Source: Candidatus Falkowbacteria bacterium (GTDB lineage Bacteria; Patescibacteriota; Patescibacteriia; UBA11705; JABHMO01). From it: a stretch of 64,000 nucleotides of DNA. Position numbers and translations under genes: made by a program. Below, piece by piece: positions 2,769 to 59,821 of the stretch (within the stretch, counting starts at the first letter, position 1; each line of letters opens with the position of its first letter). The stretch spans positions 25,708 to 89,707 of the forward strand of contig JABHAL010000010.1 in NCBI GenBank assembly GCA_018674305.1, in the 5' to 3' direction. The notes under the pieces were generated by a model. It was given only the letters and a program-made list of their open reading frames with translations. It made no database searches and was not told the DNA's origin.

Positions 2769-3422
2769 CTAATTGATTTGTTTTGTATTTTCTTTGAACC
2801 AGGACAGTGACACGTAATTTATGTCAGTTTTGCTATCTACGTTATGAGCAACACACAAGTCTCCAGATGAATCTATAAGAAAACCAGTAACTATCCAAGT
2901 GTCAACTTGAACAGCATCTTCGTATTGATATTTTTCACCAATCACAATACCATCAAATTCATTCTTTGCCAAGTAGTACTCTTTACTATTTTCATAAAAC
3001 GGAACATCCGATTCTTTTAATACAGCACCAGGAGAAGTTATTAATACAGACCCATTCTGTCCTGGAAATTTTATAGCGATCTCGTCACTCTCTAATCTAA
3101 GAATAGTGCACCGAATCCACTTTGTAGCATTCCTATAATAAACAATATCTTCAACTGTAATTTCTTCGTCAAACTTAAGATCTTCTATTTTCACCACCTT
3201 TGTCTCAATAAACTCAACAATCTCCTCTTTCTTGGCGATGTAATCGCGCATAACTTGAAGTGCTTCATTGTCACCGGCCTCAGCTTTCTCTTTCAGTTCA
3301 GCAAATCCAAGACCACCTGAGATTTCTTCCAACTCTGACATTAATTTATCAAAATGCACTTGCTGAACTTCGGTGAAGTTAGCTTTGAGGGATTTCTCGG
3401 TTAGTTGTTCTATGCTTTTCAT
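2769..3422 (-). CDS. Paralog-family protein P1: conserved ~75-aa N-terminal helical domain plus a unique C-terminal domain
   Basis: 217 aa. The N-terminus MKSIEQLTEKSLKANFTEVQQVHFDKLMSELEEISGGLGFAELKEKAEAGDNEALQVMRDYIAKKEEIVEFIETK is shared with six other ORFs in this window; the C-terminus is unrelated to theirs. Confidence 0.7.
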   Translation of the reverse strand: MKSIEQLTEKSLKANFTEVQQVHFDKLMSELEEISGGLGFAELKEKAEAGDNEALQVMRDYIAKKEEIVEFIETKVVKIEDLKFDEEITVEDIVYYRNATKWIRCTILRLESDEIAIKFPGQNGSVLITSPGAVLKESDVPFYENSKEYYLAKNEFDGIVIGEKYQYEDAVQVDTWIVTGFLIDSSGDLCVAHNVDSKTDINYVSLSWFKENTKQIN

Positions 3423-3468
3423 ATTTGATATTTTTTAGTAGGTATTGGTTATTGGGTATTAGAAATTT

Positions 3469-3569
3469 TACTCGTTACTGTTCTCGTCCCGCATAGCGGG
3501 ATCCCGTTTGCGGGAGATTTAACATACTTAGTATTGCTTCTCTGCGTAGCGGAGTCCGCTATGCGGACG
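3469..3569. repeat. REPIN-like composite palindromic repeat (copy 1)
   Basis: The arms cccgcATAgcggg and tcccgTTTGcggga, a central agcggAGTccgct, and overall left-arm/right-arm inverted complementarity (cgtcccgcatagcggga ... gtccgctatgcggacg). About 95% identical to the copy at 4281-4380. Confidence 0.7.
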
Positions 3570-3580
3570 TGATTCATAGA

Positions 3581-4222: not shown

Positions 4223-4253
4223 GAGGATTAACTATTGGTTATTGTGTATTGGT

Positions 4254-4277
4254 TATTGGGTATTGGGTATTGGGTAT
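4254..4277. repeat. Tandem heptamer repeat (TATTGGG)x3 on the plus strand, CCCAATA on the coding strand, immediately upstream of the P2 start
   Basis: tattgggtattgggtattgggtatttt. Related degenerate copies occur at 3441-3463, 56563-56590 and 57358-57393, each just upstream of a minus-strand start codon. Confidence 0.6.
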
Positions 4278-4280
4278 TTT

Positions 4281-4380
4281 ATTCGTTATTGTTCTCGTCC
4301 CGCATAGCGGGATCCCGTTTGCGGGAGATTTAACATACTTAGTATTGCTTCTCCGCGTAGCGGAGTCCGCTGTGCGGACA
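4281..4380. repeat. REPIN-like composite palindromic repeat (copy 2)
   Basis: Near-identical to 3469-3569, including the same small hairpins. Confidence 0.7.
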
Positions 4381-4390
4381 AATTTCATAA

Positions 4391-6762: not shown

Positions 6763-7479
6763 TTATTTTAACTTCGCAACCGTCACTATATTTAAACCTC
6801 GTAACCACGAGCTCTTCTTTCCTGGCCGATCCGGATCATTCTTCGCGCTGTAATAGTTTTTGGTCACTGTAAATCCGTTTTTCTGAAGTAATCTTTTAAT
6901 TCTTCCTTTTGTAAATGCGTAATAATAGAGTGGAACGTCGACGCCTGTGGTTTTCCAATGAGTTGTAACTCCACGCTCACCAAAAAGAATCATGGCCAGC
7001 GAAACATTTTTCCAGATTGATTTTAAATTATCTCGATTCCAAAGATTCCAGTTTACCATCAACAGTTTTCCACCCGGTTTCAACAATCTTTTCACATTTT
7101 CTATGACAGACTGTTGATTATCCTTTGGAAAATGGTTCAAAGAAGAAACCATGAAGATAACGTCAAATTTCTTAATACCCAATTCACAATCCCCAATATC
7201 CAATACATCACAAACTTCAAATTTCTGATCAGGATATGATTTTTGTGCCTGTTTAATCAACCCTTCACTATTATCAATACCTAAATAACTTATACTTTCA
7301 CCTTTTACCTGTAAACTTTCCACTAGCCGCCCATTTCCACAACCCAAATCAAGAATGTTATCGCCATCCTTGATATTTTTTGCCAAAAAGGAAATATCAC
7401 CCCAAACATAACCACGAGTGCTAGAAAATAATTCCGCAATCTTATTGTAACTTTGCTTATTTTGTTCGATTAGATCCAT
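6763..7479 (-). CDS. Class I SAM-dependent methyltransferase
   Basis: 238 aa. Motif I ILDLGCGNGR and a post-I acidic residue pattern. Confidence 0.75.
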   Translation of the reverse strand: MDLIEQNKQSYNKIAELFSSTRGYVWGDISFLAKNIKDGDNILDLGCGNGRLVESLQVKGESISYLGIDNSEGLIKQAQKSYPDQKFEVCDVLDIGDCELGIKKFDVIFMVSSLNHFPKDNQQSVIENVKRLLKPGGKLLMVNWNLWNRDNLKSIWKNVSLAMILFGERGVTTHWKTTGVDVPLYYYAFTKGRIKRLLQKNGFTVTKNYYSAKNDPDRPGKKSSWLRGLNIVTVAKLK

Positions 7480-12788: not shown

Positions 12789-12792
12789 AAAT

Positions 12793-12915
12793 AACCAATT
12801 GACCAATTAACCAAACTCTAAACAAATACGAATATTCAAAATACAAATTATTTTAAATTTAAAGCTTTTGAGTTTTGAATTTTAATTAGGATTTGATAAA
12901 TTGATTAATTGATAA
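12793..12915. repeat. Intergenic repeat family, copy A (CAATTGAYCAATT-ended element)
   Basis: 5' end aaccaattgaccaatt...ccaaactctaaacaaatacgaat, 3' end ttaggatttgataaattgattaattg. It aligns with copies at 15745-15900, 30512-30628 and 53443-53568. Confidence 0.65.
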
Positions 12916-12925
12916 TTAACTTAGT

Positions 12926-15618: not shown

Positions 15619-15647
15619 ATTATAGCATATACTTAACAACTTGTCAA
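15619..15647 (-). promoter_or_regulatory. Sigma70-type promoter on the minus strand (TTGACA-17-TATAAT) driving the candidate ncRNA
   Basis: On the minus strand: TTGACA (plus 15642-15647), a 17-nt spacer, then TATAAT (plus 15619-15624). Both hexamers match the consensus perfectly. Confidence 0.55.
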
Positions 15648-15744
15648 TAGCCAGATTAACTGCAAGCTAATTTTACACAAAATACTTATCCAGAGTCTAT
15701 TCACTTGTGCTTATTACAATACTCTAATAAGATGTAGATAGATA

Positions 15745-15900
15745 ATGATCAATTGACCAATTTGCCAAATCCTAAACAATGTCAAAACTCAAAATGATAA
15801 AATACGAATTTCACTTTTGAATTTGTATTTCTATATTCCTCAACCGACCAACAATTCAACAGTAATTTAGATTTTGATCAATTGATTAATTATAATTTTC
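15745..15900. repeat. Intergenic repeat family, copy B
   Basis: gatcaattgaccaatttgccaaatcctaaacaa...aaatacgaattt...ttttgaattt...ttagattttgatcaattgattaatt, immediately upstream of dnaB. Confidence 0.65.
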
Positions 15901-17640: not shown

Positions 17641-18243
17641 ATGCGTTATCCTGAAACTATCAACAACCTAATCGAATCCTTTTCTCGCCTACCGGGAATT
17701 GGACGCAAAACTGCTGAGCGGTTTGTTTTTTATTTACTAAAGAGACCTGGTGCTGAAATTGAAAAATTTGCCAAAAACCTGTATGAACTGCAAAAACACA
17801 ACTTTACTTGTCCAGATTGTTTTAATTTTTCCGAAAACCAAGGATTATGTTCAATTTGTTCTGATTCAACCAGAAACCAAAATACAATTTGTGTAATTGA
17901 AGAATTCCATGATCTAAATGTTATTGAAGCTACAGGTGAATATAAGGGACTATATCACGTACTTGGTGGCAAAATAGACCCCCCTGAAGGCATCACTCCG
18001 GACAAACTAAAAATAAAGGAGTTATTGAGGAGAATACAACAAAACAATATTCAAGAAATTATTCTAGCCTTGAATCCAGACATTCAGGGTGAAGGAACTA
18101 TTATTTACTTAAAAAACATTCTTAAACCTCTAAACATAAAATTAACTCTACTCGCACGAGGACTTCCAATGGGATCTGACATTGAATATGCGGATGAAAT
18201 TACATTGAGTAATGCTCTGAAAGGGCGACAAGAATTAAAATAA
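17641..18243 (+). CDS. recR: Recombination protein RecR
   Basis: The RecR N-terminal MRYPETINNLIESFSRLPGIGRKTAERF, a C4 zinc finger CPDC...CSIC, and a Toprim region. The track ORF starts earlier (17566) and overlaps ybaB; the MRYP start is preferred. Confidence 0.88.
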   Translation: MRYPETINNLIESFSRLPGIGRKTAERFVFYLLKRPGAEIEKFAKNLYELQKHNFTCPDCFNFSENQGLCSICSDSTRNQNTICVIEEFHDLNVIEATGEYKGLYHVLGGKIDPPEGITPDKLKIKELLRRIQQNNIQEIILALNPDIQGEGTIIYLKNILKPLNIKLTLLARGLPMGSDIEYADEITLSNALKGRQELK

Positions 18244-18420
18244 ACAGTTTATAATCAACACTTTCAGCTTAGCATTCCACGGGGTCTGGGGCGGAGTTCG
18301 CCCTCGCACTTCCCACGAACAAAAATTGTCCCCACGCGAATTCGAAGCTCCAGCGTTTTTTGGTTACTTTTTGACGCCAAAAAGTAACTCACCGAAGGAC
18401 AACTCCTGGCATGATTATTA

Positions 18421-18452
18421 AAAATAAAAAACAGGCCTTATGGCCTGTTTTT
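18421..18452. terminator. Bidirectional rho-independent terminator between recR and rplU
   Basis: caggcc-ttat-ggcctg, flanked by an A-run on the left and a T-run on the right. Confidence 0.7.
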
Positions 18453-18462
18453 ATATTGTAAA

Positions 18463-18777
18463 TTAAACTTTGTTGATCTTAACTTTTGTAAAATGTTGCC
18501 TGTGTCCAGCTTTTCGTCTATACCTTGTCTTTCTTTTATATTTTACAACTATCACTTTTTTATCACGAGCTTGTTCTAATATTTCAGCTTCAACCTTGGC
18601 ATCCTTAAGAAAAGGTTTACCAATTTCTAGCTTTGAACCTTTGTCGTCTGATTTTAGTAAAACTTGGTCAAACTCAATTTTATCACCAACTTCACCTGGT
18701 AATTTCTCAAATTTCATTAATTGTCCTTTGGTAACTTTGTACTGCTTACCACCAGTTTTTATCACTGCTAAACTCAT
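18463..18777 (-). CDS. rplU: 50S ribosomal protein L21
   Basis: 104 aa. MSLAVIKTGGKQYKVTKGQ is the bL21 signature N-terminus. Confidence 0.9.
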   Translation of the reverse strand: MSLAVIKTGGKQYKVTKGQLMKFEKLPGEVGDKIEFDQVLLKSDDKGSKLEIGKPFLKDAKVEAEILEQARDKKVIVVKYKRKTRYRRKAGHRQHFTKVKINKV

Positions 18778-23920: not shown

Positions 23921-23959
23921 ACAAAAAAAGAGGACTAATTCGCATTGCGAATTAGTCCC
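23921..23959 (-). terminator. Strong rho-independent terminator on the minus strand
   Basis: Perfect 12-bp stem ggactaattcgc/gcgaattagtcc with a 3-nt loop, followed on the minus strand by a 7-U run (plus A-run 23923-23929). Confidence 0.75.
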
Positions 23960-25233
23960 TTTACCATCGTTGAACATTGACTTGTGGGCCAACATCCTCG
24001 TACATTAAAGTTTGATTTTACCATTACAGTTTGTCTTTGAGACACGGTTTGTTCATTTGTGAAGTGCTAGTTTTGAAGCTTGGCTTAACCAATTCTTGAT
24101 TTTTGTTTTGTTCTGACCGAGGTCAGTTTCCAACTATTACAAGTTTGGCGACTTACCGTCCCGAAGGATGGCTAAAGATAGTTTATCACTCTATGATTGC
24201 TCATTGAGTTTCCGCTATCAAGTCTTACTTTTGCTTTTTCTTCTAGTTCTTCTGAACATTCCTTGTGTTCTGTTGTCTTGTCAACACTAGGCTGACATCG
24301 CGTGAAGGTTAATTGTCTGACCGAAGTCAGTGAGGAACATTTCGCTAGCCGAAGCTTTTGATTTGTTCTTACTTTTAACTTTCCAGAATACTTTGCTCTT
24401 TGGACATTAGCTGTTTCGTTTACTTGCTGGATTTTTGTTTTCTTCCTTTCGGAGGATCACTTTGTCCACTGGGGTAAACTACTAGTTCGTTTTCTCTGTC
24501 GTTCTGTAGTCTTGCTAAAGCAGTTTTACCAAGGAGTTTTTCGTTTTTACACAAAATACTTCTTGATTTTTTTGCTTTGATGCAAGTTGCTTGCGTTGAA
24601 GATTGGCTCTTGATCTAGTCTTGGCTAGCTTTTTTCTTCTGTTACCGAAGTAACGTCAGAATCCGGTTAACTTTGATTTTGATCCGTCATAGCTTATCTT
24701 CTGCATGCCCACTGATCGATTTTGATTGCGAATTAGCGACGTTTAACTTACTTGCCTCGAAAGGTTTTCTGTCTTTGTCTACTGCTAATTTACTGTTTAG
24801 CTCCATTTATAATAGTAGTCGTTGGTTTTTCCGAAGAAAATCCTGACTGCTAAATAGAGGCCAAATCTGTCATTGCCTTTTCTGAGTGGGTTGGTTACCA
24901 CTACAGTAAAAGCTCGAGATCTGTGGTGCATGTTAGTGTCAAGGCGCTTTTCACGGCTGTGCCCTTAAGTCAGTTGTCCAAGTTAATTTGGAGTATTGCT
25001 ACTCTTTGGTTAACTTTTTCTCCTGTCTCAGGACTCCACCTCAGAACTTGCATTCTTTGGTTTCCCTTGTCTTTACTTGCTCAATTACTTGTAATGAACT
25101 TTGTTGATGGTAATTCACATTATACTCGTATATCAAAACCTGTCAAGTGCCTAACTGTGGATAACTTTTAACTCTATTTTTTGTTTAATTTTAGAGGAAA
25201 ACTTTACCCCATTGACAAAATTATATATTATTG
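23960..25233 (-). ncRNA. Candidate large (~1.3 kb) structured ncRNA on the minus strand
   Basis: Only one short track ORF (24923-25171). The plus strand is T/G-rich and A-poor, so the minus-strand RNA is A/C-rich. At least five ccgaag sites on plus correspond to C(UUCG)G on minus, each flanked by complementary stems (for example gttac-CGAA-gtaac at 24640 and ctgac-CGAA-gtcag at 24318). It ends at the 23921-23959 terminator. Confidence 0.45.
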
Positions 25234-27908: not shown

Positions 27909-27923
27909 AAAATCCGTACCTAT

Positions 27924-27961
27924 ATAAAAAAACAGAGCCTGGTTAGAGAACCAAGGCTCTG
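27924..27961 (-). terminator. Rho-independent terminator after lipoprotein 1
   Basis: cagagcctgg...ccaaggctctg hairpin followed on the minus strand by a U-run (plus aaaaaaa 27924-27932). Confidence 0.7.
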
Positions 27962-27972
27962 TTGTGTTATTA

Positions 27973-28515
27973 CTATTTATCTTCGATAACACGTACCATT
28001 GCCGGCGGAGTGGCCAGCTGAAGTGGCTGATCGCACAGCATGTACGTCCCGCTCCACTCTAGGTAAACATCATCCGTAGTAAAGAAGAAAACCGCGTCAC
28101 CATTGGTTCCGTACGAACCATCGAGCTGCGGGCTTTCCACAACCTTACCACCAACACGTCTACGTGCAAAAGGATCATCGACAATCTGTTCACCAGTAGT
28201 TAACTTGGAGTTAACACTGGAGACCTTACCCTTGATAGTATGAAAGGCCATCACCTTACCATAGCTAACCAGGTAAATGTAGCTGATCTTGTTCGGATCA
28301 TTGAAACGGTTAAGCCGCTTTGACAGGTTATCTCGCTCCAAAGAACTCTCGATCTTGGGCGGCGGCGTGGCCTTGATCAGACGACCCTGCTGCTCTTCCG
28401 TGAAATTGGCCTCTGCCTTCTGGGTCTCACCCTGGCCCTCGTAGGACTCATCATCACAACCAACAAAGGCAGTGAACGCGAAAACACACGCAATTGCCAG
28501 CATAATTTTCTTCAT
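27973..28515 (-). CDS. Lipoprotein paralog 1 (unknown family)
   Basis: 180 aa with signal and lipobox AFTAFVGC. Conserved core LIKATPPPKIESSLER...ISYIYLVSYGKVMAFHTIKGKV...VESPQLDGSYG...PLQLATPP. Local GC is about 50-55%. Confidence 0.7.
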   Translation of the reverse strand: MKKIMLAIACVFAFTAFVGCDDESYEGQGETQKAEANFTEEQQGRLIKATPPPKIESSLERDNLSKRLNRFNDPNKISYIYLVSYGKVMAFHTIKGKVSSVNSKLTTGEQIVDDPFARRRVGGKVVESPQLDGSYGTNGDAVFFFTTDDVYLEWSGTYMLCDQPLQLATPPAMVRVIEDK

Positions 28516-29102
28516 TTCGACACCTCCTCGTCGCTCGTATCAGTCTTGGGATTATCCTCAATAATGCGAACCATCTCCGGAGGAGTAGACAGCTGAAGTG
28601 GTTGGTCGCTCAGCATGTATGCACCGTTCCACTCCAAGTAAATATCGTCCGTGGTGAAGAAGAAAACCGCATCGCCATTAGTTCCATATGAACCATCGAG
28701 CTGCGGGCTTTCTACTACCTTACCAGACCTGCCCTCATGATGAGCAAAAGGATCCTTCACGATCTGCTCACCAGTAGTCAACTTTGAATTAACACTAGAA
28801 ACCTTTCCCTTGATTGCATGAAAGGCCATGACCTTACCAAAATCGACCAAGTAGATATAACTGATCTTGTTGGGATCATTGAAACGAACAAGACGCTTGG
28901 CCAAATTCTCACGCTCCAAAGAGCTCTCGATCTTGGGCGGTGGGGTGGACTTGATCAGACGACCCTGCTGCGCTTCCGTGATCTTAGCTTCTTCCTTCTG
29001 GGTCTCACCCTGGCCCTCATAAGTTTGCTTTTCCGTCTTGCAGCCAACAAAGGCAAACGCCAGAATCAAGCTAAACAAAACCAACGTCTTTCCAGTCCTC
29101 AT
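28512..29102 (-). CDS. Lipoprotein paralog 2
   Basis: 196 aa with lipobox AFAFVGC and ribosome-binding site GAGGAGG. It is about 70% identical to paralog 1, and its stop overlaps the paralog 1 start (ATGA). Confidence 0.7.
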   Translation of the reverse strand: MRTGKTLVLFSLILAFAFVGCKTEKQTYEGQGETQKEEAKITEAQQGRLIKSTPPPKIESSLERENLAKRLVRFNDPNKISYIYLVDFGKVMAFHAIKGKVSSVNSKLTTGEQIVKDPFAHHEGRSGKVVESPQLDGSYGTNGDAVFFFTTDDIYLEWNGAYMLSDQPLQLSTPPEMVRIIEDNPKTDTSDEEVSK

Positions 29103-29226
29103 CGCAACCTCCTCAAGGTTATTAAGATGAATACACTAACAGATAGTGTAAACATCCTATAATATCACATATGAAATACTTTGTCAATAGCGACTGTAAT
29201 TTTACCACAAAGTCGCCCCTTTGAGA

Positions 29227-29263
29227 TAAAAAAACAGAGCCTGGTTAGAGAACCAAGGCTCTG
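29227..29263 (-). terminator. Rho-independent terminator after lipoprotein 3 (duplicate of the 27924-27961 module)
   Basis: Same hairpin and A-run. About 60 bp including the gene 3' end is duplicated (aaaaaacagagcctggttagagaaccaaggctctgtYgtgttattactaYttgtcttcgat). Confidence 0.7.
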
Positions 29264-29274
29264 TCGTGTTATTA

Positions 29275-29817
29275 CTACTTGTCTTCGATCATCCGGACCA
29301 TGGCCGGTGGCGTAGACAGTTGCAGTGGCTCAGTAAGCCACATGTAATCACCTCGCCACTGGACCAATACTTCTTCTGTAGTCCAGAAGAAGATCGCGTC
29401 TTCACTCGGACCATAGGATCCGTCCAATCCAGGACTTTCCATCGTATGTCGAGTTCGTCCAGCGCCAGTTGATCCATCGCCGACCTCGACAACCTGATCA
29501 CGCGTAGTCAACTTAGACGAACAATAAGTAACCTTGCCCTTCACCGTATGAAAGGCCATCACCTTGCCATAACTGATCAAGTAAATATAAGAGATTCGAT
29601 CTTCACGATTGATCTCCTTGAGATACTTCACCAGATTCTCCCGCTCTAGAGAATTTTTCATCTCCGGCGGAGGAGTCGACTTGAGTAACCGTTCCTGGTT
29701 CCTCTCTGTCATTTCCATCTCATCGATGGTAGTCTGGCCAGTATCCAGCGCCTTACCGCAACTGATCATACCCATAGCCAGAACACAGAGAGTAACAATC
29801 GTCATAAGCTTCTTCAT
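29275..29817 (-). CDS. Lipoprotein paralog 3 (diverged)
   Basis: 180 aa with lipobox GMISCG. It is about 45% identical to paralogs 1 and 2 and conserves the TPPPEM, ISYIYLISYGKVMAFHTVKGKV and PLQLSTPPAMVRMIEDK blocks. Confidence 0.7.
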   Translation of the reverse strand: MKKLMTIVTLCVLAMGMISCGKALDTGQTTIDEMEMTERNQERLLKSTPPPEMKNSLERENLVKYLKEINREDRISYIYLISYGKVMAFHTVKGKVTYCSSKLTTRDQVVEVGDGSTGAGRTRHTMESPGLDGSYGPSEDAIFFWTTEEVLVQWRGDYMWLTEPLQLSTPPAMVRMIEDK

Positions 29818-29826
29818 GTCAATCTC

Positions 29827-30342
29827 CTACTGGCCGGGGATAGTGAAATCTGCCGGATGCGTCGCCGGAAGATCATCAGTTTTGAACAGCTCACGGTTGG
29901 CCATTTCAGTTCGCGCATTGTACTTGGCCACCACGTCTCGCCGTTGATTCTGCAGACCCAGCACGATCGTGTTGAGTCGAGAATACTCGGTCTTGTCCTC
30001 GAACGTCCAATCCTTGCGCGGACCAGCGTCTTCCTTGAAGCGCTTGAGCGCCGCGTCAGAATTGACGATCTTGGACTCCAGCGACAGGATATCCTGATTC
30101 GTCTGCTTGAACCACTCGTAGTTCTGGATCACGTTGTCCGCGTCCAGAGTCTTCTCCATGATCTTCACAGCCTGCTCGCCGGGATAACACACCACCCGGA
30201 CAACCGTCCCGATGAGTCCCAACACAATCACAACTGCGAGGATCTTGAAGAACATACTCCAAGGTCCACCTTTGGCCAGGTTGTAGGCCGTGTTTTCGTA
30301 CTTTCGCCCAACATCATCCCATCGATCATCATTCCGTGTCAT
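29827..30342 (-). CDS. LemA-like membrane protein (low-confidence family assignment)
   Basis: Ribosome-binding site AAGGAGGTG before the internal ATG (MTRNDDR). One transmembrane helix (FFKILAVVIVLGLIGTVV) then a helical region with YNARTEMANRELFK, loosely LemA-like. The track ORF extends to 30369. Confidence 0.45.
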   Translation of the reverse strand: MTRNDDRWDDVGRKYENTAYNLAKGGPWSMFFKILAVVIVLGLIGTVVRVVCYPGEQAVKIMEKTLDADNVIQNYEWFKQTNQDILSLESKIVNSDAALKRFKEDAGPRKDWTFEDKTEYSRLNTIVLGLQNQRRDVVAKYNARTEMANRELFKTDDLPATHPADFTIPGQ

Positions 30343-30473
30343 CTCCACCTCCTTAAGGTTTAGACACAAAAATACTTCTATTCAGCAACACAGTTTTCAT
30401 AAGAGTATAGCATAAAGATTAAATACTGTCAACCCTATTACCTAAATTTACAACAGAAATACTATTTGAAACA

Positions 30474-30497
30474 AAAAACAGGCAAATAACGCCTGCT
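30474..30497 (-). terminator. Rho-independent terminator after the helicase gene
   Basis: caggc-aaataac-gcctg followed on the minus strand by a U-run (plus aaaaaa 30474-30479). Confidence 0.5.
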
Positions 30498-30511
30498 TAA
30501 TAACAAAGAAA

Positions 30512-30628
30512 CAATTAACCAAATCCTAAATAAACACAAAATATCAATGCTTAAAATATAAAAATAACTTTTGAATTTAAATATTATAATTTGTTTAGAA
30601 TTTAGAGTTTGATTCATTGATCAATTTG
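30512..30628. repeat. Intergenic repeat family, copy C (5'-truncated)
   Basis: acaattaaccaaatcctaaataaac...cttttgaattt...ttagagtttgattcattgatcaattt. Confidence 0.6.
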
Positions 30629-32593
30629 TCAATCTACATAAATAACATCTTCGCCCTCATCATTAAACCCATACGGCTGATGTCCTTGCTTCATATACTT
30701 TGATTCATCTAACTCACGGATGAACATAGACGGTTTGGAAAATACCTCACCGAACTTGTAACTAAACGAACGAACCGGGAACAACATATTCAATTCATCC
30801 TTGGCTCTCGTGGCCGCCACGTAAAACAAACGTCGTTCTTCCTCCAACTCGCGCGGATTGTCAATAGATTTATGGTGAGGAAAATGACCATCGCGTAATC
30901 CGATTATAAAAACTACTGCCCACTCCAAGCCTTTGGCTTGATGAATTGTGGACAAAATCACTGCGTTCTTGTCATGTTCATGCTCATCAGCAAACGACTC
31001 ACTAAGCATCACGTCAGTTAAAAGTTTATCCAAATCATTATACATTGCCACAAAGTTAACCAATTGACCTAAGTCATCCAGGCGGTCACGATAATTCTCA
31101 TAAGCATTTTTCAAATACTCTTCATAACCATGCGCTAAAACATATTCCACTGCCTCGGCAATATAACCTTTTTGATTTTTATCTAAATCTTTCAGAAAAC
31201 TAAAAGTTGAAGAAATCCTTCCCCAGCTAATTGCAGCTTTACCCGTTAACTTTAAATTTCCATCGATTAATTCGCTCAGCTCACCGAATTCCTGAATTTT
31301 TTTCCAAATAACTTCAGCTCTTTTCATTCCAATGCCTTCATACATTAATAAAATTCGTTTCCAGGAGACCTCATCCTGATAGTTAGTTAAAACTTTTAAA
31401 TAGGCCACAACGTCTTTGACGTGAGCTTGCTCAAAATAGCGCATACCACCGCGTACAACGTAAGGAATATTTTGTTTTGATAGTTCCAGTTGAATTTCCG
31501 CTGATTGAAAAGTTGCGCGATACAAAACTGCCATTGATTCATAATTAACACCATCACGATACAGTTGCATTATTCTTTTGATAATCAAACTAGCCTGTTG
31601 TTGCTGATCACGTGCGGCAATCAAAGTTGGTAAAATATTATCTCCTCGGTTTGGTTTTAATGCTTTTTGAAATTGATCCACGTTATGCTCAATACTATTA
31701 TTTGCTAAATCTAATATTTGAGGAGTACTACGATAATTAGTTTCAATTTTGTAAATTTTGGTTTTTGCAAACAGTTTAGGAAAATTTAATATGTTCTTTA
31801 CATCAGCAGCGCGAAATGAATAAATACTTTGTGAATCATCACCAACTACCAGTACATTATTATGAAATGACGACAAATGTCGAATAATTTCCGCTTGGAT
31901 GTAATTTGTATCTTGATATTCGTCAACCAAAATGTATTCAAACTGCTTGGCAAATCTTTCTTTGATATCTGGGAATTGCTCTAACAGTCTCAACCAATTC
32001 ACTAAAAGGTCATCAAAGTCCATCACGTTGGCAACTTTTTTCTTTTTATTATAAATAAAAGCAATCTCTTCACATTTTTCCGCAATAAAATCAGGGTAAG
32101 AATAATACACTTCAACCACCTCACGAATATCTTGATTGGTGTTTCGGGAATAACTAATCATACCTTGAACAATACTGGCCTTAGGAAAATTCTGCCCTTT
32201 AACATTCAACGCCAATTCTTCCATCGCGGCCTTAACCAAACTGATTGAATCAGCTTGATCTAAAATATTGAAGTTTCGATTATAATCTAGCTTGTCAGCG
32301 TATTTACGAAGAACTCTATTGGCAATACGATGAAATGTACCGCCCCACAAATGATCAGGGTTAAATCCTAACAAATTTTCTACTCTGGCTAACATTTCAT
32401 TGGCCGCTCTATTGGTAAACGTAACCAACAATATACTTTCAGGTTTTATCCCACATTCTACTAAATAAGCCACACGAAAAACTAAAGTGCGTGTTTTTCC
32501 TGACCCGGCGCCCGCCAAAACCAAACAAGGGCCGTCCGATTCGGTAACGACTTGATATTGTTCTTTATTTAGTAGTTTTTTATACTCAATCAT
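30629..32593 (-). CDS. UvrD/PcrA/Rep-family ATP-dependent DNA helicase
   Basis: 654 aa. Motif I is LVLAGAGSGKTRTLVFRVAYL, with DEYQDTN-like motif II and the rest of the helicase motifs. Confidence 0.88.
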   Translation of the reverse strand: MIEYKKLLNKEQYQVVTESDGPCLVLAGAGSGKTRTLVFRVAYLVECGIKPESILLVTFTNRAANEMLARVENLLGFNPDHLWGGTFHRIANRVLRKYADKLDYNRNFNILDQADSISLVKAAMEELALNVKGQNFPKASIVQGMISYSRNTNQDIREVVEVYYSYPDFIAEKCEEIAFIYNKKKKVANVMDFDDLLVNWLRLLEQFPDIKERFAKQFEYILVDEYQDTNYIQAEIIRHLSSFHNNVLVVGDDSQSIYSFRAADVKNILNFPKLFAKTKIYKIETNYRSTPQILDLANNSIEHNVDQFQKALKPNRGDNILPTLIAARDQQQQASLIIKRIMQLYRDGVNYESMAVLYRATFQSAEIQLELSKQNIPYVVRGGMRYFEQAHVKDVVAYLKVLTNYQDEVSWKRILLMYEGIGMKRAEVIWKKIQEFGELSELIDGNLKLTGKAAISWGRISSTFSFLKDLDKNQKGYIAEAVEYVLAHGYEEYLKNAYENYRDRLDDLGQLVNFVAMYNDLDKLLTDVMLSESFADEHEHDKNAVILSTIHQAKGLEWAVVFIIGLRDGHFPHHKSIDNPRELEEERRLFYVAATRAKDELNMLFPVRSFSYKFGEVFSKPSMFIRELDESKYMKQGHQPYGFNDEGEDVIYVD

Positions 32594-32598
32594 TTGGA

Positions 32599-33174
32599 TT
32601 ACGAGATTACAAGATTATTCCTGTCACGTTGCCATTTTTGGGGATTGCAACGAATATACCAACGAACTTGCTCTAATTCCTCCTGACTTCGAATTATCCG
32701 ATCGTAAAATCTCCCCTGCCAAAACCTTTCACCAACTGTCCCCCTTATTTTATTAATTTGTTTAGCTGACTGCATTTTAAATCGTCCAATCATTTTGGGC
32801 AATAACATATGGCGACGAATCATTCGACGACACGTTGTGTCGTCTGCATACATTCGTAGAGACAATTCATGAATTGTCTCTACATCACGGTCGTCGCCAT
32901 TAACAATTCTAATTATCCCATGAAAATGATTGGGCATAATTATATATTTATCTATTTCACATTGTGGATAATGCCGAAACGCATCTTGCCAACATTGCTC
33001 AACAATTTCACCAAAGTCATTTAGAAACATCTTTTCATTCCTAACTTTCCCTAGCCACTCAATCATATAAGATGTACACATCGTAACATAATAGAATCCA
33101 TCAGACGAATAATTCCAATACGGCAAACGTGTTGATTTAATTCTATACCTGTTTTTATATAATTCCTCACTCAT
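32599..33174 (-). CDS. IS200-like / REP-associated tyrosine (Y1, HUH) transposase
   Basis: 191 aa. HUH motif PNHFHGIIRI and a C-terminal tyrosine region RFWQGRFYDRII...YIRCNPQKW. It ends 5 bp upstream of the helicase start. Confidence 0.7.
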   Translation of the reverse strand: MSEELYKNRYRIKSTRLPYWNYSSDGFYYVTMCTSYMIEWLGKVRNEKMFLNDFGEIVEQCWQDAFRHYPQCEIDKYIIMPNHFHGIIRIVNGDDRDVETIHELSLRMYADDTTCRRMIRRHMLLPKMIGRFKMQSAKQINKIRGTVGERFWQGRFYDRIIRSQEELEQVRWYIRCNPQKWQRDRNNLVIS

Positions 33175-33205
33175 ATTGGTATTATTTTACCACAAAAATA
33201 GCCAA

Positions 33206-33234
33206 AACAAAAAAAGGGCCTAATGTAGACCCTT
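33206..33234 (-). terminator. Probable terminator after the 33250 gene
   Basis: agggtct...ggccct stem with a G-U pair, followed on the minus strand by a U-run (plus aaaaaaa). Confidence 0.4.
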
Positions 33235-33249
33235 ATAATATTCAACAAC

Positions 33250-41376: not shown

Positions 41377-41456
41377 TAGTTACCTCATTTTTAATGGACA
41401 CTTCATTATAATTGAACTCCCAAAGTTTGTCAATGTAGAGACATTTTCACAATAGT

Positions 41457-41527
41457 CATTCCGGACTTGATCCGGAATCCCAGGTCTCCTTATAAAGATT
41501 TTTAAGACTCCGGATCAAGTCCGGAGT
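41457..41527. repeat. REPIN-like pair of inverted REP hairpins
   Basis: H1 cattccggacttgatccggaatc, and H2 ctccggatcaagtccggag whose core is the reverse complement of H1. The H1 25-mer recurs identically at 59525-59549 inside murI. Confidence 0.7.
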
Positions 41528-41599
41528 GACGCTTTGGGGTATATTAGATAAAACAAACAAAAACACCAACTCGAGTTGGCTTTAAATATGAGGATTCTA

Positions 41600-53417: not shown

Positions 53418-53442
53418 AAAATAAAATATTAATTATTAATTA

Positions 53443-53568
53443 CCAATTGATCAATCACCTAAAATCTAAATAAACCTAAATGAACAAATTCGAAAATAAT
53501 TTCAAACCTTTGGAAATTTTTATTTTAAATTTATCTGGGACTTAGAGTTTTGATCCATTGATTAATTT
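53443..53568. repeat. Intergenic repeat family, copy D
   Basis: taccaattgatcaatcacctaaaatctaaataaacc...ttagagttttgatccattgattaattt. Confidence 0.6.
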
Positions 53569-53605
53569 CATTAGCTTTATTATAACAAATTTTACCCATT
53601 TTGGC

Positions 53606-53634
53606 GAAAAAAACAGAGGTGTGGATACCTCTGC
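53606..53634 (-). terminator. Rho-independent terminator after the 53657 gene
   Basis: cagaggt-gtggata-cctctg hairpin followed on the minus strand by a U-run (plus aaaaaaa 53607-53613). Confidence 0.6.
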
Positions 53635-53656
53635 TTTTATGTAATATTTTGTCTAC

Positions 53657-58927: not shown

Positions 58928-59821
58928 TCATTCGCATGAGAGTATATTCGTATCAATCTTATGTAACTCAATTTTCTCACCAAAAAACTTATCTGCTGTT
59001 TCCTGAAAATTATCGCTTAGATCTGTCACTAAATATTTGGTTTGTGAATTTTTACTTAAATCATTATCAATTTCCGGATGCCTCTTTAAATAATCTTTTA
59101 AACTCTTGGCCACAATCTCACCAGGATTAGGAACCAAGCAATTCGGCCCCATTATTTGTTTAATTTGTTCTATTAATAATGGATAATGAGTACAAGCTAA
59201 AACTAAAACTTGAACCGCTTGCTCTCGCAATGGTTGAATATATTTTTCTAAAATAACTTTGGTTTCAGGTTCATTCATCCAGCCTTCCTCAATCAACGGC
59301 ACCAGCAATGGACAAGCTTGTTGAACTATATTGAGTTCATGAACCTTTGACCCTGAACCTTTACCCCTTCCTTGCCCCTGAATCCTGACTCCTTGACCCT
59401 TTAATTCTACCACATAAATGTTCGAATTAACAGTTCCTCGCGTGCCAATTATTCCAACTTTACTACAACCAAGCCCTGCCACATACTCTGCCATCGGCCG
59501 CACCACTCCCAGTATATTAAATTCGTCATTCCGGACTTGATCCGGAATCTCACGAACAAGGCCGGGTAGCCACTCTTGCTGCAATCGTCTCAACGCTTTC
59601 GCACTGGCAGTATTACAAGCAACTATAATTAATTTGCAACCATTTTTAAATAAATAATCACACGCCTTTCTGGTCAAACCAAAGATAGCCTCATCAGATC
59701 TATTTCCGTAAGGAACATGAAGTGTATCACCCAAATACATATAATCGTATTTCGGCAAACTACGTTTAATTTCTTTTAATACGGTTAATCCACCTAAACC
59801 GCTATCAAAGACACCAATCAT
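58928..59821 (-). CDS. murI: Glutamate racemase MurI, with two repeat-derived in-frame insertions
   Basis: GVFDSGLGGLTV, IVACNTASA, ACTHYP and the rest are MurI-like. ...LVREIPDQVRNDEF... is encoded by the REP-like 25-mer, and GQGVRIQGQGRGKGSGSKV by CAAGG-type simple repeats. Confidence 0.8.
   Translation of the reverse strand: MIGVFDSGLGGLTVLKEIKRSLPKYDYMYLGDTLHVPYGNRSDEAIFGLTRKACDYLFKNGCKLIIVACNTASAKALRRLQQEWLPGLVREIPDQVRNDEFNILGVVRPMAEYVAGLGCSKVGIIGTRGTVNSNIYVVELKGQGVRIQGQGRGKGSGSKVHELNIVQQACPLLVPLIEEGWMNEPETKVILEKYIQPLREQAVQVLVLACTHYPLLIEQIKQIMGPNCLVPNPGEIVAKSLKDYLKRHPEIDNDLSKNSQTKYLVTDLSDNFQETADKFFGEKIELHKIDTNILSCE

Follow-up and report, generated by a model that had tools for sequence, protein, structure and literature searches.

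Four homologous copies of a small AT-rich palindromic repeat in intergenic spacers of a Candidatus Falkowbacteria genome

The small dispersed repeats of bacteria, among them MITE, ERIC, REP and Correia elements, have been reviewed together with their effects on mRNA (PMC3184786). In one described arrangement, the REPIN, two inverted, conserved units that each bear a palindrome enclose a less conserved spacer; the whole forms a hairpin, and a single-copy RAYT gene lies nearby (PMC3116915). Repeats of another kind, heptamers of the TAACTGA type, occur upstream of genes without a Shine-Dalgarno (SD) sequence in Beggiatoaceae and cyanobacteria (PMC4679880). For candidate-phyla-radiation (CPR) bacteria, whose genomes are reduced, there are hardly any descriptions of small dispersed repeats, and our full-text literature searches returned nothing relevant on repeats of the present kind in Patescibacteria.

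We analyzed a window of 64,000 nucleotides (the whole stretch of DNA introduced above; GC ~36%, with a negative GC skew throughout) in which four copies of an intergenic repeat had been predicted. We confirmed the observation: the four sequences, here called c1 to c4, are homologous copies of a repeat that is 117–157 bp long and typically ~125 bp. With moderate confidence, we read them as copies of a single dispersed repeat that is lineage-specific, non-coding and of the MITE/ERIC/REPIN-like sort and that would be co-transcribed with its neighbors as an AU-rich hairpin.

Four copies of one composite palindrome

All four copies were present where the original prediction had placed them, with slightly wider ends, and they share a single orientation, as had been claimed (Table 1). 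They align to one another end to end. Pairwise global alignments scored z = 6.7–9.5 against shuffles, with 67–82% identity over the aligned columns. As a control, seven other AT-rich spacers of the window were compared with the copies and gave z values from −2.4 to +1.1. Because neither composition-matched shuffles nor other AT-rich spacers show such similarity, AT-richness alone does not explain it, and the refutation set out in advance, that low-complexity AT composition would account for the resemblance, fails.

Profile searches gave the same picture. The only matches in the window to a profile HMM of the four copies were those copies themselves, with E-values of 7e-22 to 3e-28 on the plus strand; the weaker self-matches on the reverse strand arise because the elements are palindromically symmetric. 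Leave-one-out profiles retrieved the omitted copy in every case (E = 4.4e-11 for c1, 6.2e-13 for c2, 5.7e-8 for c3 and 7.1e-13 for c4), and the best unrelated match to these profiles had E > 0.1. Searches with the core alone retrieved no other copy, which places the similarity mainly in the ends. Individual motifs are likewise in excess: CAATTGAYYAATT occurs 9 times (1.6 expected), the 3' block 5 times (0.17 expected) and the 11-mer ATTGATYAATT 7 times (0.55 expected).

The source population has been assembled in many samples (including the metagenome-assembled genome GCA_018665965.1). Across independent assemblies the four copies are 100% identical and show no length polymorphism, so they are not assembly artefacts. 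The flanks of the window, searched for 10 kb on either side, held no further copy, which leaves a total of four in ~84 kb. Since the copies diverge from one another by 18–33%, either any spread was not recent or they decay fast.

Each copy is an end-to-end imperfect palindrome of 18–26% GC with a periodicity of 7–8 nt. Its two terminal blocks, ~35 nt each, are mutually inverted and made of 7–8-nt sub-repeats. When the four left arms were aligned with the reverse complements of the four right arms, the eight sequences matched over ~37 nt with a mean column identity of 73% (consensus AAT.A.CAATTGATCAATTAACCAAA.TCTAAATAA), and arm pairs taken between copies were 83–86% complementary. The core between the arms is poorly conserved and very AT-rich, its left half being A/C-rich and its right half T/G-rich; in c2 it carries ~30 extra nucleotides. 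No conserved ORF was found within the elements, and their small ORFs are not kept between copies.

The shared blocks had been predicted to follow one order, and they do recur in order. All four copies carry the series CAATTGA, CCAATTA, ACCAAAY, YCTAAAY ... TTTAGRN, TTTGATN, NATTGAT, YAATT, with the exception that c3 lacks the outermost 5' CAATTGA. The 3' block is not uniform, however, since c4 has a 1-nt insertion and c1 breaks the K position of the pattern. In addition, the relative position of AAATACGAAT differs between c1 and c2. A restriction-site reading of CAATTG was rejected, the hexamer occurring at its expected frequency.

The left and right arms are not exact mirror images. Left arms read GACCAAT / AACCAAA and right arms AATCAAT / ATCAAA, consistently in all copies. 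An asymmetry common to every copy would already have been present in one master sequence, which argues for copying and against independent origin.

An alternative is that the resemblance arose in place, by a "stutter" in which degenerate 7–8-nt tandem repeats converged without being copies of one sequence. The spacers of this window do have such a background. Their degenerate 7–8-nt tandem sub-repeats vary between spacers and frequently reach start codons lacking an SD sequence, an SD-like motif being found in only ~30% of the window's genes. Lag-7 autocorrelation reached z = 7.2 in the window's other spacers and 4.8–5.2 in those of relatives, and lag-8 autocorrelation reached z = 6.2 in relative L012. 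The same heptad style was seen in L010, L012, L145, L151 and L155 and seems clade-wide, with orthologous spacers of relatives alike in style and different in sequence. Tandem Repeats Finder listed dozens of short arrays of period 7–9, mostly just upstream of start codons; within the family it reported only short period-8 arrays at either end of c1 and small ones inside and next to c4. Elsewhere, too, heptamer repeats such as TAACTGA are known to precede start codons closely (PMC4679880); we found no description of the heptad spacer phenomenon in Patescibacteria.

Against convergence in place, one ordered series of distinct sub-repeats recurs in all four copies, as do the left/right differences. 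Leave-one-out E-values ran from 1e-8 to 1e-13, while the other spacers of stuttering type show no similarity to the family. Length polymorphism between assemblies, too, is lacking in the copies. We consider an origin by stutter very improbable. The family is built in the heptad style of the other spacers, but it is one composite sequence found at several loci.

Genomic sites and predicted transcripts

The neighboring genes had been named correctly: the copies lie beside the genes for serine hydroxymethyltransferase (SHMT, glyA), DnaB, GAPDH (gap) and a UvrD-like helicase. Copies c1, c2 and c4 are directly upstream of start codons, and c3 is not. Relative to transcription, the copies occur in both orientations.

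Table 1. Coordinates of the repeat copies and of neighboring features in the window.
Feature	Coordinates	Strand	Remarks
Copy c1	12790–12918	+	Left arm ~12790–12826, right arm ~12882–12918
dnaB promoter-like block, CTTGTGC...TAATAAGAT	15705–15733	+	Conserved with L012; putative promoter role
Copy c2 (longest)	15744–15900	+	Between conserved promoter-like block and dnaB start (15908)
Intrinsic terminator-like hairpin and T-run	30476–30498	−	Downstream of c3 on the minus strand
Copy c3 (outer left sub-repeat missing)	30505–30634	+	Adjoins UvrD-like helicase stop (30629–30631, minus strand)
RAYT-like Y1/HUH gene (191 aa)	32599–33174	−	5 nt upstream of UvrD-like helicase gene
Copy c4	53438–53573	+	Between predicted minus-strand extended −10 promoter and gap start codon (53417)
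Terminator hairpin of upstream gene, then promoter-like site	53579–53636	−	Conserved in L149 and L151

Copy c1 fills a 137-nt spacer that runs from the stop codon of a FecR-domain gene (12788) to the start of glyA (12926), and no terminator-like site was found between these two co-directional genes. The promoter-like block before dnaB ends ~11 nt ahead of c2. Before gap, a promoter-like site (TCGCCA-17-TGTTATAAT) ends at 53579, ~6 nt before c4. As judged from predicted transcription, c2 appears to be the 5' UTR of dnaB and c4, read in the minus sense, that of gap. Because c3 comes directly after the helicase stop codon and is followed by a terminator-like hairpin, we infer that it lies in the 3' UTR of a predicted minus-sense helicase transcript. 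All four copies are probably in transcribed spacers.

Other features were recorded near two of these sites. On the minus strand at 15619–15647, a perfect sigma-70 consensus (TTGACA-17-TGnTATAAT, 12/12) faces away from dnaB toward an ORF of 70–83 aa. A DnaA-box-like sequence, TTATCCAGA (TTATACACG in L012), is found at 15690–15700, just upstream of the conserved dnaB promoter-like block. At ~27921–30500, a 2.7-kb island of four tandem paralogous genes with strong SD sites and repeated terminators has 48% GC, compared with ~36% elsewhere. It lies between the helicase and PD-(D/E)XK genes, has c3 at its helicase-proximal edge, is absent from relative L153, and was probably acquired horizontally.

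The repeats had also been proposed to be a dispersed regulatory or promoter module. This proposal is not supported: the copies have opposite orientations with respect to downstream genes, and one copy is located in a predicted 3' UTR. The best promoter-like sites are outside the elements, and those of gap and dnaB are conserved in relatives that have no element. Promoter-like sites inside the elements are weak and no commoner than in shuffles.

Regulation could take another form. If the palindromic, CAATTGAYCAATTG-like ends were operators bound by one regulator or nucleoid protein, glyA, dnaB, gap and the helicase gene would be co-regulated, and selection for binding would keep the copies similar. 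That the ends are far better conserved than the core fits such a role, as do the strong over-representation of ATTGATYAATT and the three copies directly upstream of start codons. Binding sites, however, need neither blocks that continue in order through the core nor a left/right asymmetry common to all copies. The sites are downstream of the predicted promoters, with c3 after a stop codon and before a terminator, and in relatives the same genes have unrelated leaders. A search of the elements for the IHF consensus found none. We regard a shared operator module as quite improbable.

We undertook in silico folding of the element RNAs. The predicted hairpins have energies of −15 to −30 kcal/mol (z = −1.1 to −4.3), and compared with shuffles the minus-strand RNA of every copy has the more stable fold (z = −2.0 to −4.3). 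Because the element is symmetric, its RNA is laid out alike in either orientation, with an A/C-rich 5' arm and a U/G-rich 3' arm; the latter ends 10–26 nt ahead of the start codon. Double changes were seen in only 2 of the 18 consensus stem pairs. Self-complementarity of the core was no better than a half-shuffle null (z = 1.0–2.3). Arm pairings across copies scored equal to pairings within a copy, so the hairpin has no covariation support. Mismatches compatible with G-U pairing on the minus strand were in excess (22 against 9). We rejected strand-specific RNA selection as the reading of this excess, which is confounded by the window's negative GC skew and can be explained by the mutational bias behind that skew.

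The minus-strand folds, together with the position of three copies ahead of metabolic or replication genes, could be taken to indicate a structured cis-regulatory RNA, either a riboswitch or a leader, or a family of small-RNA genes. We think this exceedingly improbable. Rfam 15 gave no match at the gathering score in the window and nothing meaningful at E ≤ 1 around any copy. Covariation is lacking, the elements do not have a promoter plus terminator of their own, they stand in both orientations relative to genes, and these leaders are missing in relatives. The predicted structures are simple AU-rich hairpins without the conserved unpaired pockets that are typical of ligand-binding RNAs.

If the copies are instead those of a dispersed repeat, as we prefer, the elements would be co-transcribed with the neighboring genes, and a long AU-rich hairpin with interruptions would form in the RNA from either orientation. 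In the leaders of gap and dnaB this hairpin would begin no more than a few nucleotides from the predicted 5' end; before glyA it would stand in an intercistronic position, and after the helicase gene it would precede the terminator. By analogy with REP, ERIC and Correia elements, its most plausible effect would be on mRNA decay or translation initiation, and it would not be a promoter.

Distribution among relatives and a candidate copying enzyme

The closest relative sampled is ~86% identical in coding DNA. Approximately 28 kb of this relative, covering sites 1, 3 and 4, is without any family member; a relative of 84–85% identity likewise has none at sites 1, 2 and 4. In the 85% relative L012, the shared dnaB block is followed by an unrelated hairpin-forming leader. 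At site 3, c3 and the 2.7-kb GC-rich island sit between the helicase gene and the spacer that follows it directly in the relative. Two relatives, L149 and L151, whose gap products show 94% and 84% amino-acid identity, share the terminator–promoter block before gap, and their gap leader is only 31–33 nt long, compared with ~160 nt where c4 is present. By parsimony, the conserved block and the short leaders of these relatives indicate that c4 was gained in the present lineage. At ~86% identity unconstrained DNA is unalignable, so clean empty sites, element boundaries and duplications are not readable from these comparisons.

In 185,579 species genomes, the JGI metagenomes and IMG/VR, scans for the exact pattern of the 3' block gave only single, partial chance matches, and none could be extended to a complete element with the profile; two of these collections evidently lack the source genome in matching form. 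Phage and plasmid collections held no match to the family. A blastn search for distant similarity (E ≤ 0.01) in 5,426 E. coli genomes (20,395 records) also found no match, so the family has no similarity to ERIC.

Several other non-coding regions were noticed during these comparisons. An ORF-free region of ~1.0–1.3 kb at 23921–25194 is 91.9% identical to positions 6942–8209 of L153, a relative of ~86% ANI, and is more conserved than any coding block (81–88%). It is absent from the 80% relative L155 and has no Rfam match at the gathering score or at E ≤ 1; it is a candidate for a large conserved non-coding RNA. The 226-nt, GC-richer spacer between recR and the L21 gene (18244–18470; palindrome z = 4.8, no Rfam match at the gathering score) may possibly encode a small structured RNA. 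In L151, a 458-nt non-coding region downstream of a RAYT-like gene contains GAAGAGTCCGGGG, and positions 18230–18560 resemble, on visual inspection, a structured RNA gene of the RNase P type.

The homology, architecture, positions and lineage-specificity of the repeat family are established by the results above. Mobility is something we infer, because the analysis found neither a recognizable target-site duplication nor a partner transposase with matching ends. The flanks of c1–c4 contain no consistent target-site duplication. Copies c1 and c2 have ATAA/ATAAT on both sides, which in AT-rich DNA and with fuzzy arm ends cannot be distinguished from chance. No transposase with matching ends was found in the window or in its ±10 kb flanks. 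The MITE-like reading offered in the original prediction fits the inverted terminal blocks, small size, lack of a conserved ORF, dispersed copies and absence at three orthologous sites of the nearest relative. We propose that, within this lineage, a transposition-like or recombinational process placed copies of one asymmetric master in these spacers; a RAYT-like gene of the window is a candidate for the enzyme.

The product of this gene matches Pfam Y1_Tnp above its cut-off (E = 1.9e-6, 28.4 bits; cut-off 23) and NCBIfam REP_Tyr_transpos below its curated cut-off (E = 2.8e-15, 56.4 bits; cut-off 80). Its HUH motif and catalytic Tyr align to those of E. coli TnpA-REP, PDB 4ER8. The gene is predicted to be co-transcribed, probably, with the UvrD/PcrA-like helicase gene. 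It was found in one genomic context among 22 contigs, has a syntenic ortholog with 41% identity in L155, and has no counterpart at this locus in L153. In L151 the DNA ligase gene has a second RAYT-like gene, of a different kind, beside it. The spacer upstream of the gene in the window (33175–33249) holds no copy of the repeat. The first non-coding stretch downstream of the RAYT–helicase pair is the one that contains c3, with the 1965-bp helicase gene in between.

These observations raise the possibility that the terminal blocks are REP-like palindromes and each pair of them a REPIN, moved as single-stranded DNA by the Y1/HUH protein. Conserved, palindrome-bearing ends around a less conserved spacer fit the published description (PMC3116915). 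The domain matches and the alignment to 4ER8 also agree with it, as do the single genomic context of the gene and the place of c3 after the RAYT–helicase pair. In relative L153, neither the RAYT-like gene (at this locus) nor the repeat family (at three sites) is present. A uniform chromosomal orientation would be expected of strand-specific single-stranded transposition, although at n = 4 this is weak evidence.

Several observations weigh against this, and we think it rather unlikely that the elements are REPINs of this protein. Its NCBIfam score of 56 is below the curated cut-off of 80, and its single-sequence AlphaFold model was too poor to help (pLDDT 42). With 18–26% GC, the elements have no GTAG-type head, and their palindromic cores are too short and AT-rich for stable REP hairpins. 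Copy c3 is ~2 kb from the gene and does not adjoin it. In 22 kb of relative L155, which carries the orthologous RAYT-like gene, no comparable family of repeats was found. The true partner could be the GC-rich hairpin doublets elsewhere in the window, which are more REP-like.

Repeats of GC-rich type were also found in the window. The REP-like hairpin TTCCGGACTTGATCCGGAA forms an inverted doublet at 41453–41531, between methyltransferase and ligase genes, and has a third copy within an Asp/Glu racemase ORF at 59524–59550 (3 matches, 0 expected). Between members of a seven-member family of paralogous genes without a Pfam match lies a 157-nt direct repeat (3422–3578 and 4233–4389, 88% identity), whose GC-rich hairpins (CCCGCATAGCGGGA and similar) are found downstream of arrays of the heptamer TATTGGG.

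A more specific version of the REPIN proposal, which we judge unlikely, is that these are AT-rich, heptad-built REPINs of a CPR bacterium, mobilized by a RAYT-like protein that is encoded in an operon with a UvrD/PcrA-type helicase. If true, it would extend the REPIN–RAYT partnership to Patescibacteria and to a very different type of REP sequence. A functional pairing of nuclease and helicase would be suggested as well, in an operon whose own 3' UTR carries a copy.

Comparison with known repeat systems

We compared the family with four described systems. Like ERIC, it is an imperfect palindrome (~127 bp in ERIC) of transcribed intergenic regions, occurs in either orientation, and would be expected to act, if at all, via mRNA structure and decay (PMC3184786). 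Unlike ERIC, it is much more AT-rich, is made of 7–8-nt sub-repeats, belongs to another phylum, and shows no TA-type flanking duplication. It shows no sequence homology to ERIC in the E. coli genomes searched and belongs to no known family in Rfam 15.

With the heptamer repeats the family has in common spacers of 7-nt periodicity that end a few nucleotides before start codons without an SD sequence (PMC4679880). The TAACTGA/LSSR repeats are, however, arrays of one exact heptamer genome-wide, while here degenerate, spacer-specific sub-repeats are assembled into a 125-bp composite palindrome. The sub-repeats of the elements are heterogeneous and make no single-heptamer tandem array.

The resemblance to REPIN/RAYT systems lies in a symmetric doublet with conserved palindromic ends, a less conserved spacer, a predicted hairpin and an apparently single-copy RAYT-like gene nearby. 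In contrast to REPs, whose short imperfect palindromes have GC-rich stems and a GTAG-type head, the new element is AT-rich and has no such head. Its copies are few and do not directly flank the gene, the protein is below the NCBIfam cut-off, and the spacer shows no compensatory changes.

With MITE-type elements such as Correia/NEMIS of Neisseria, RUP and Nezha, the family has in common a length of 100–160 bp, terminal inverted repeats around a short non-coding core, dispersal and, as predicted here, co-transcription (PMC3184786). As in MITEs, its presence varies between related genomes (PMC3184786), with the qualification that the relatives sampled are too distant for clean empty sites. It differs from MITEs in having no recognizable target-site duplication, IHF site or convincing internal promoter, and no related full-length IS was identified.

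The family indicates that reduced CPR genomes of ~1 Mb gain and lose 125-bp palindromic inserts in leaders and trailers, here those of the core genes gap, dnaB, glyA and one for a PcrA/UvrD-like helicase. Through them, the stability or translation of mRNAs could be altered where classical regulators are few and many genes have no SD sequence. The family profile and the candidate RAYT-like enzyme together provide a handle on spacer turnover in this clade. From the evidence so far, the find is modest rather than surprising: a previously undescribed family that is a new example of the familiar class to which MITE, ERIC and REPIN elements belong, and not a new mechanism.
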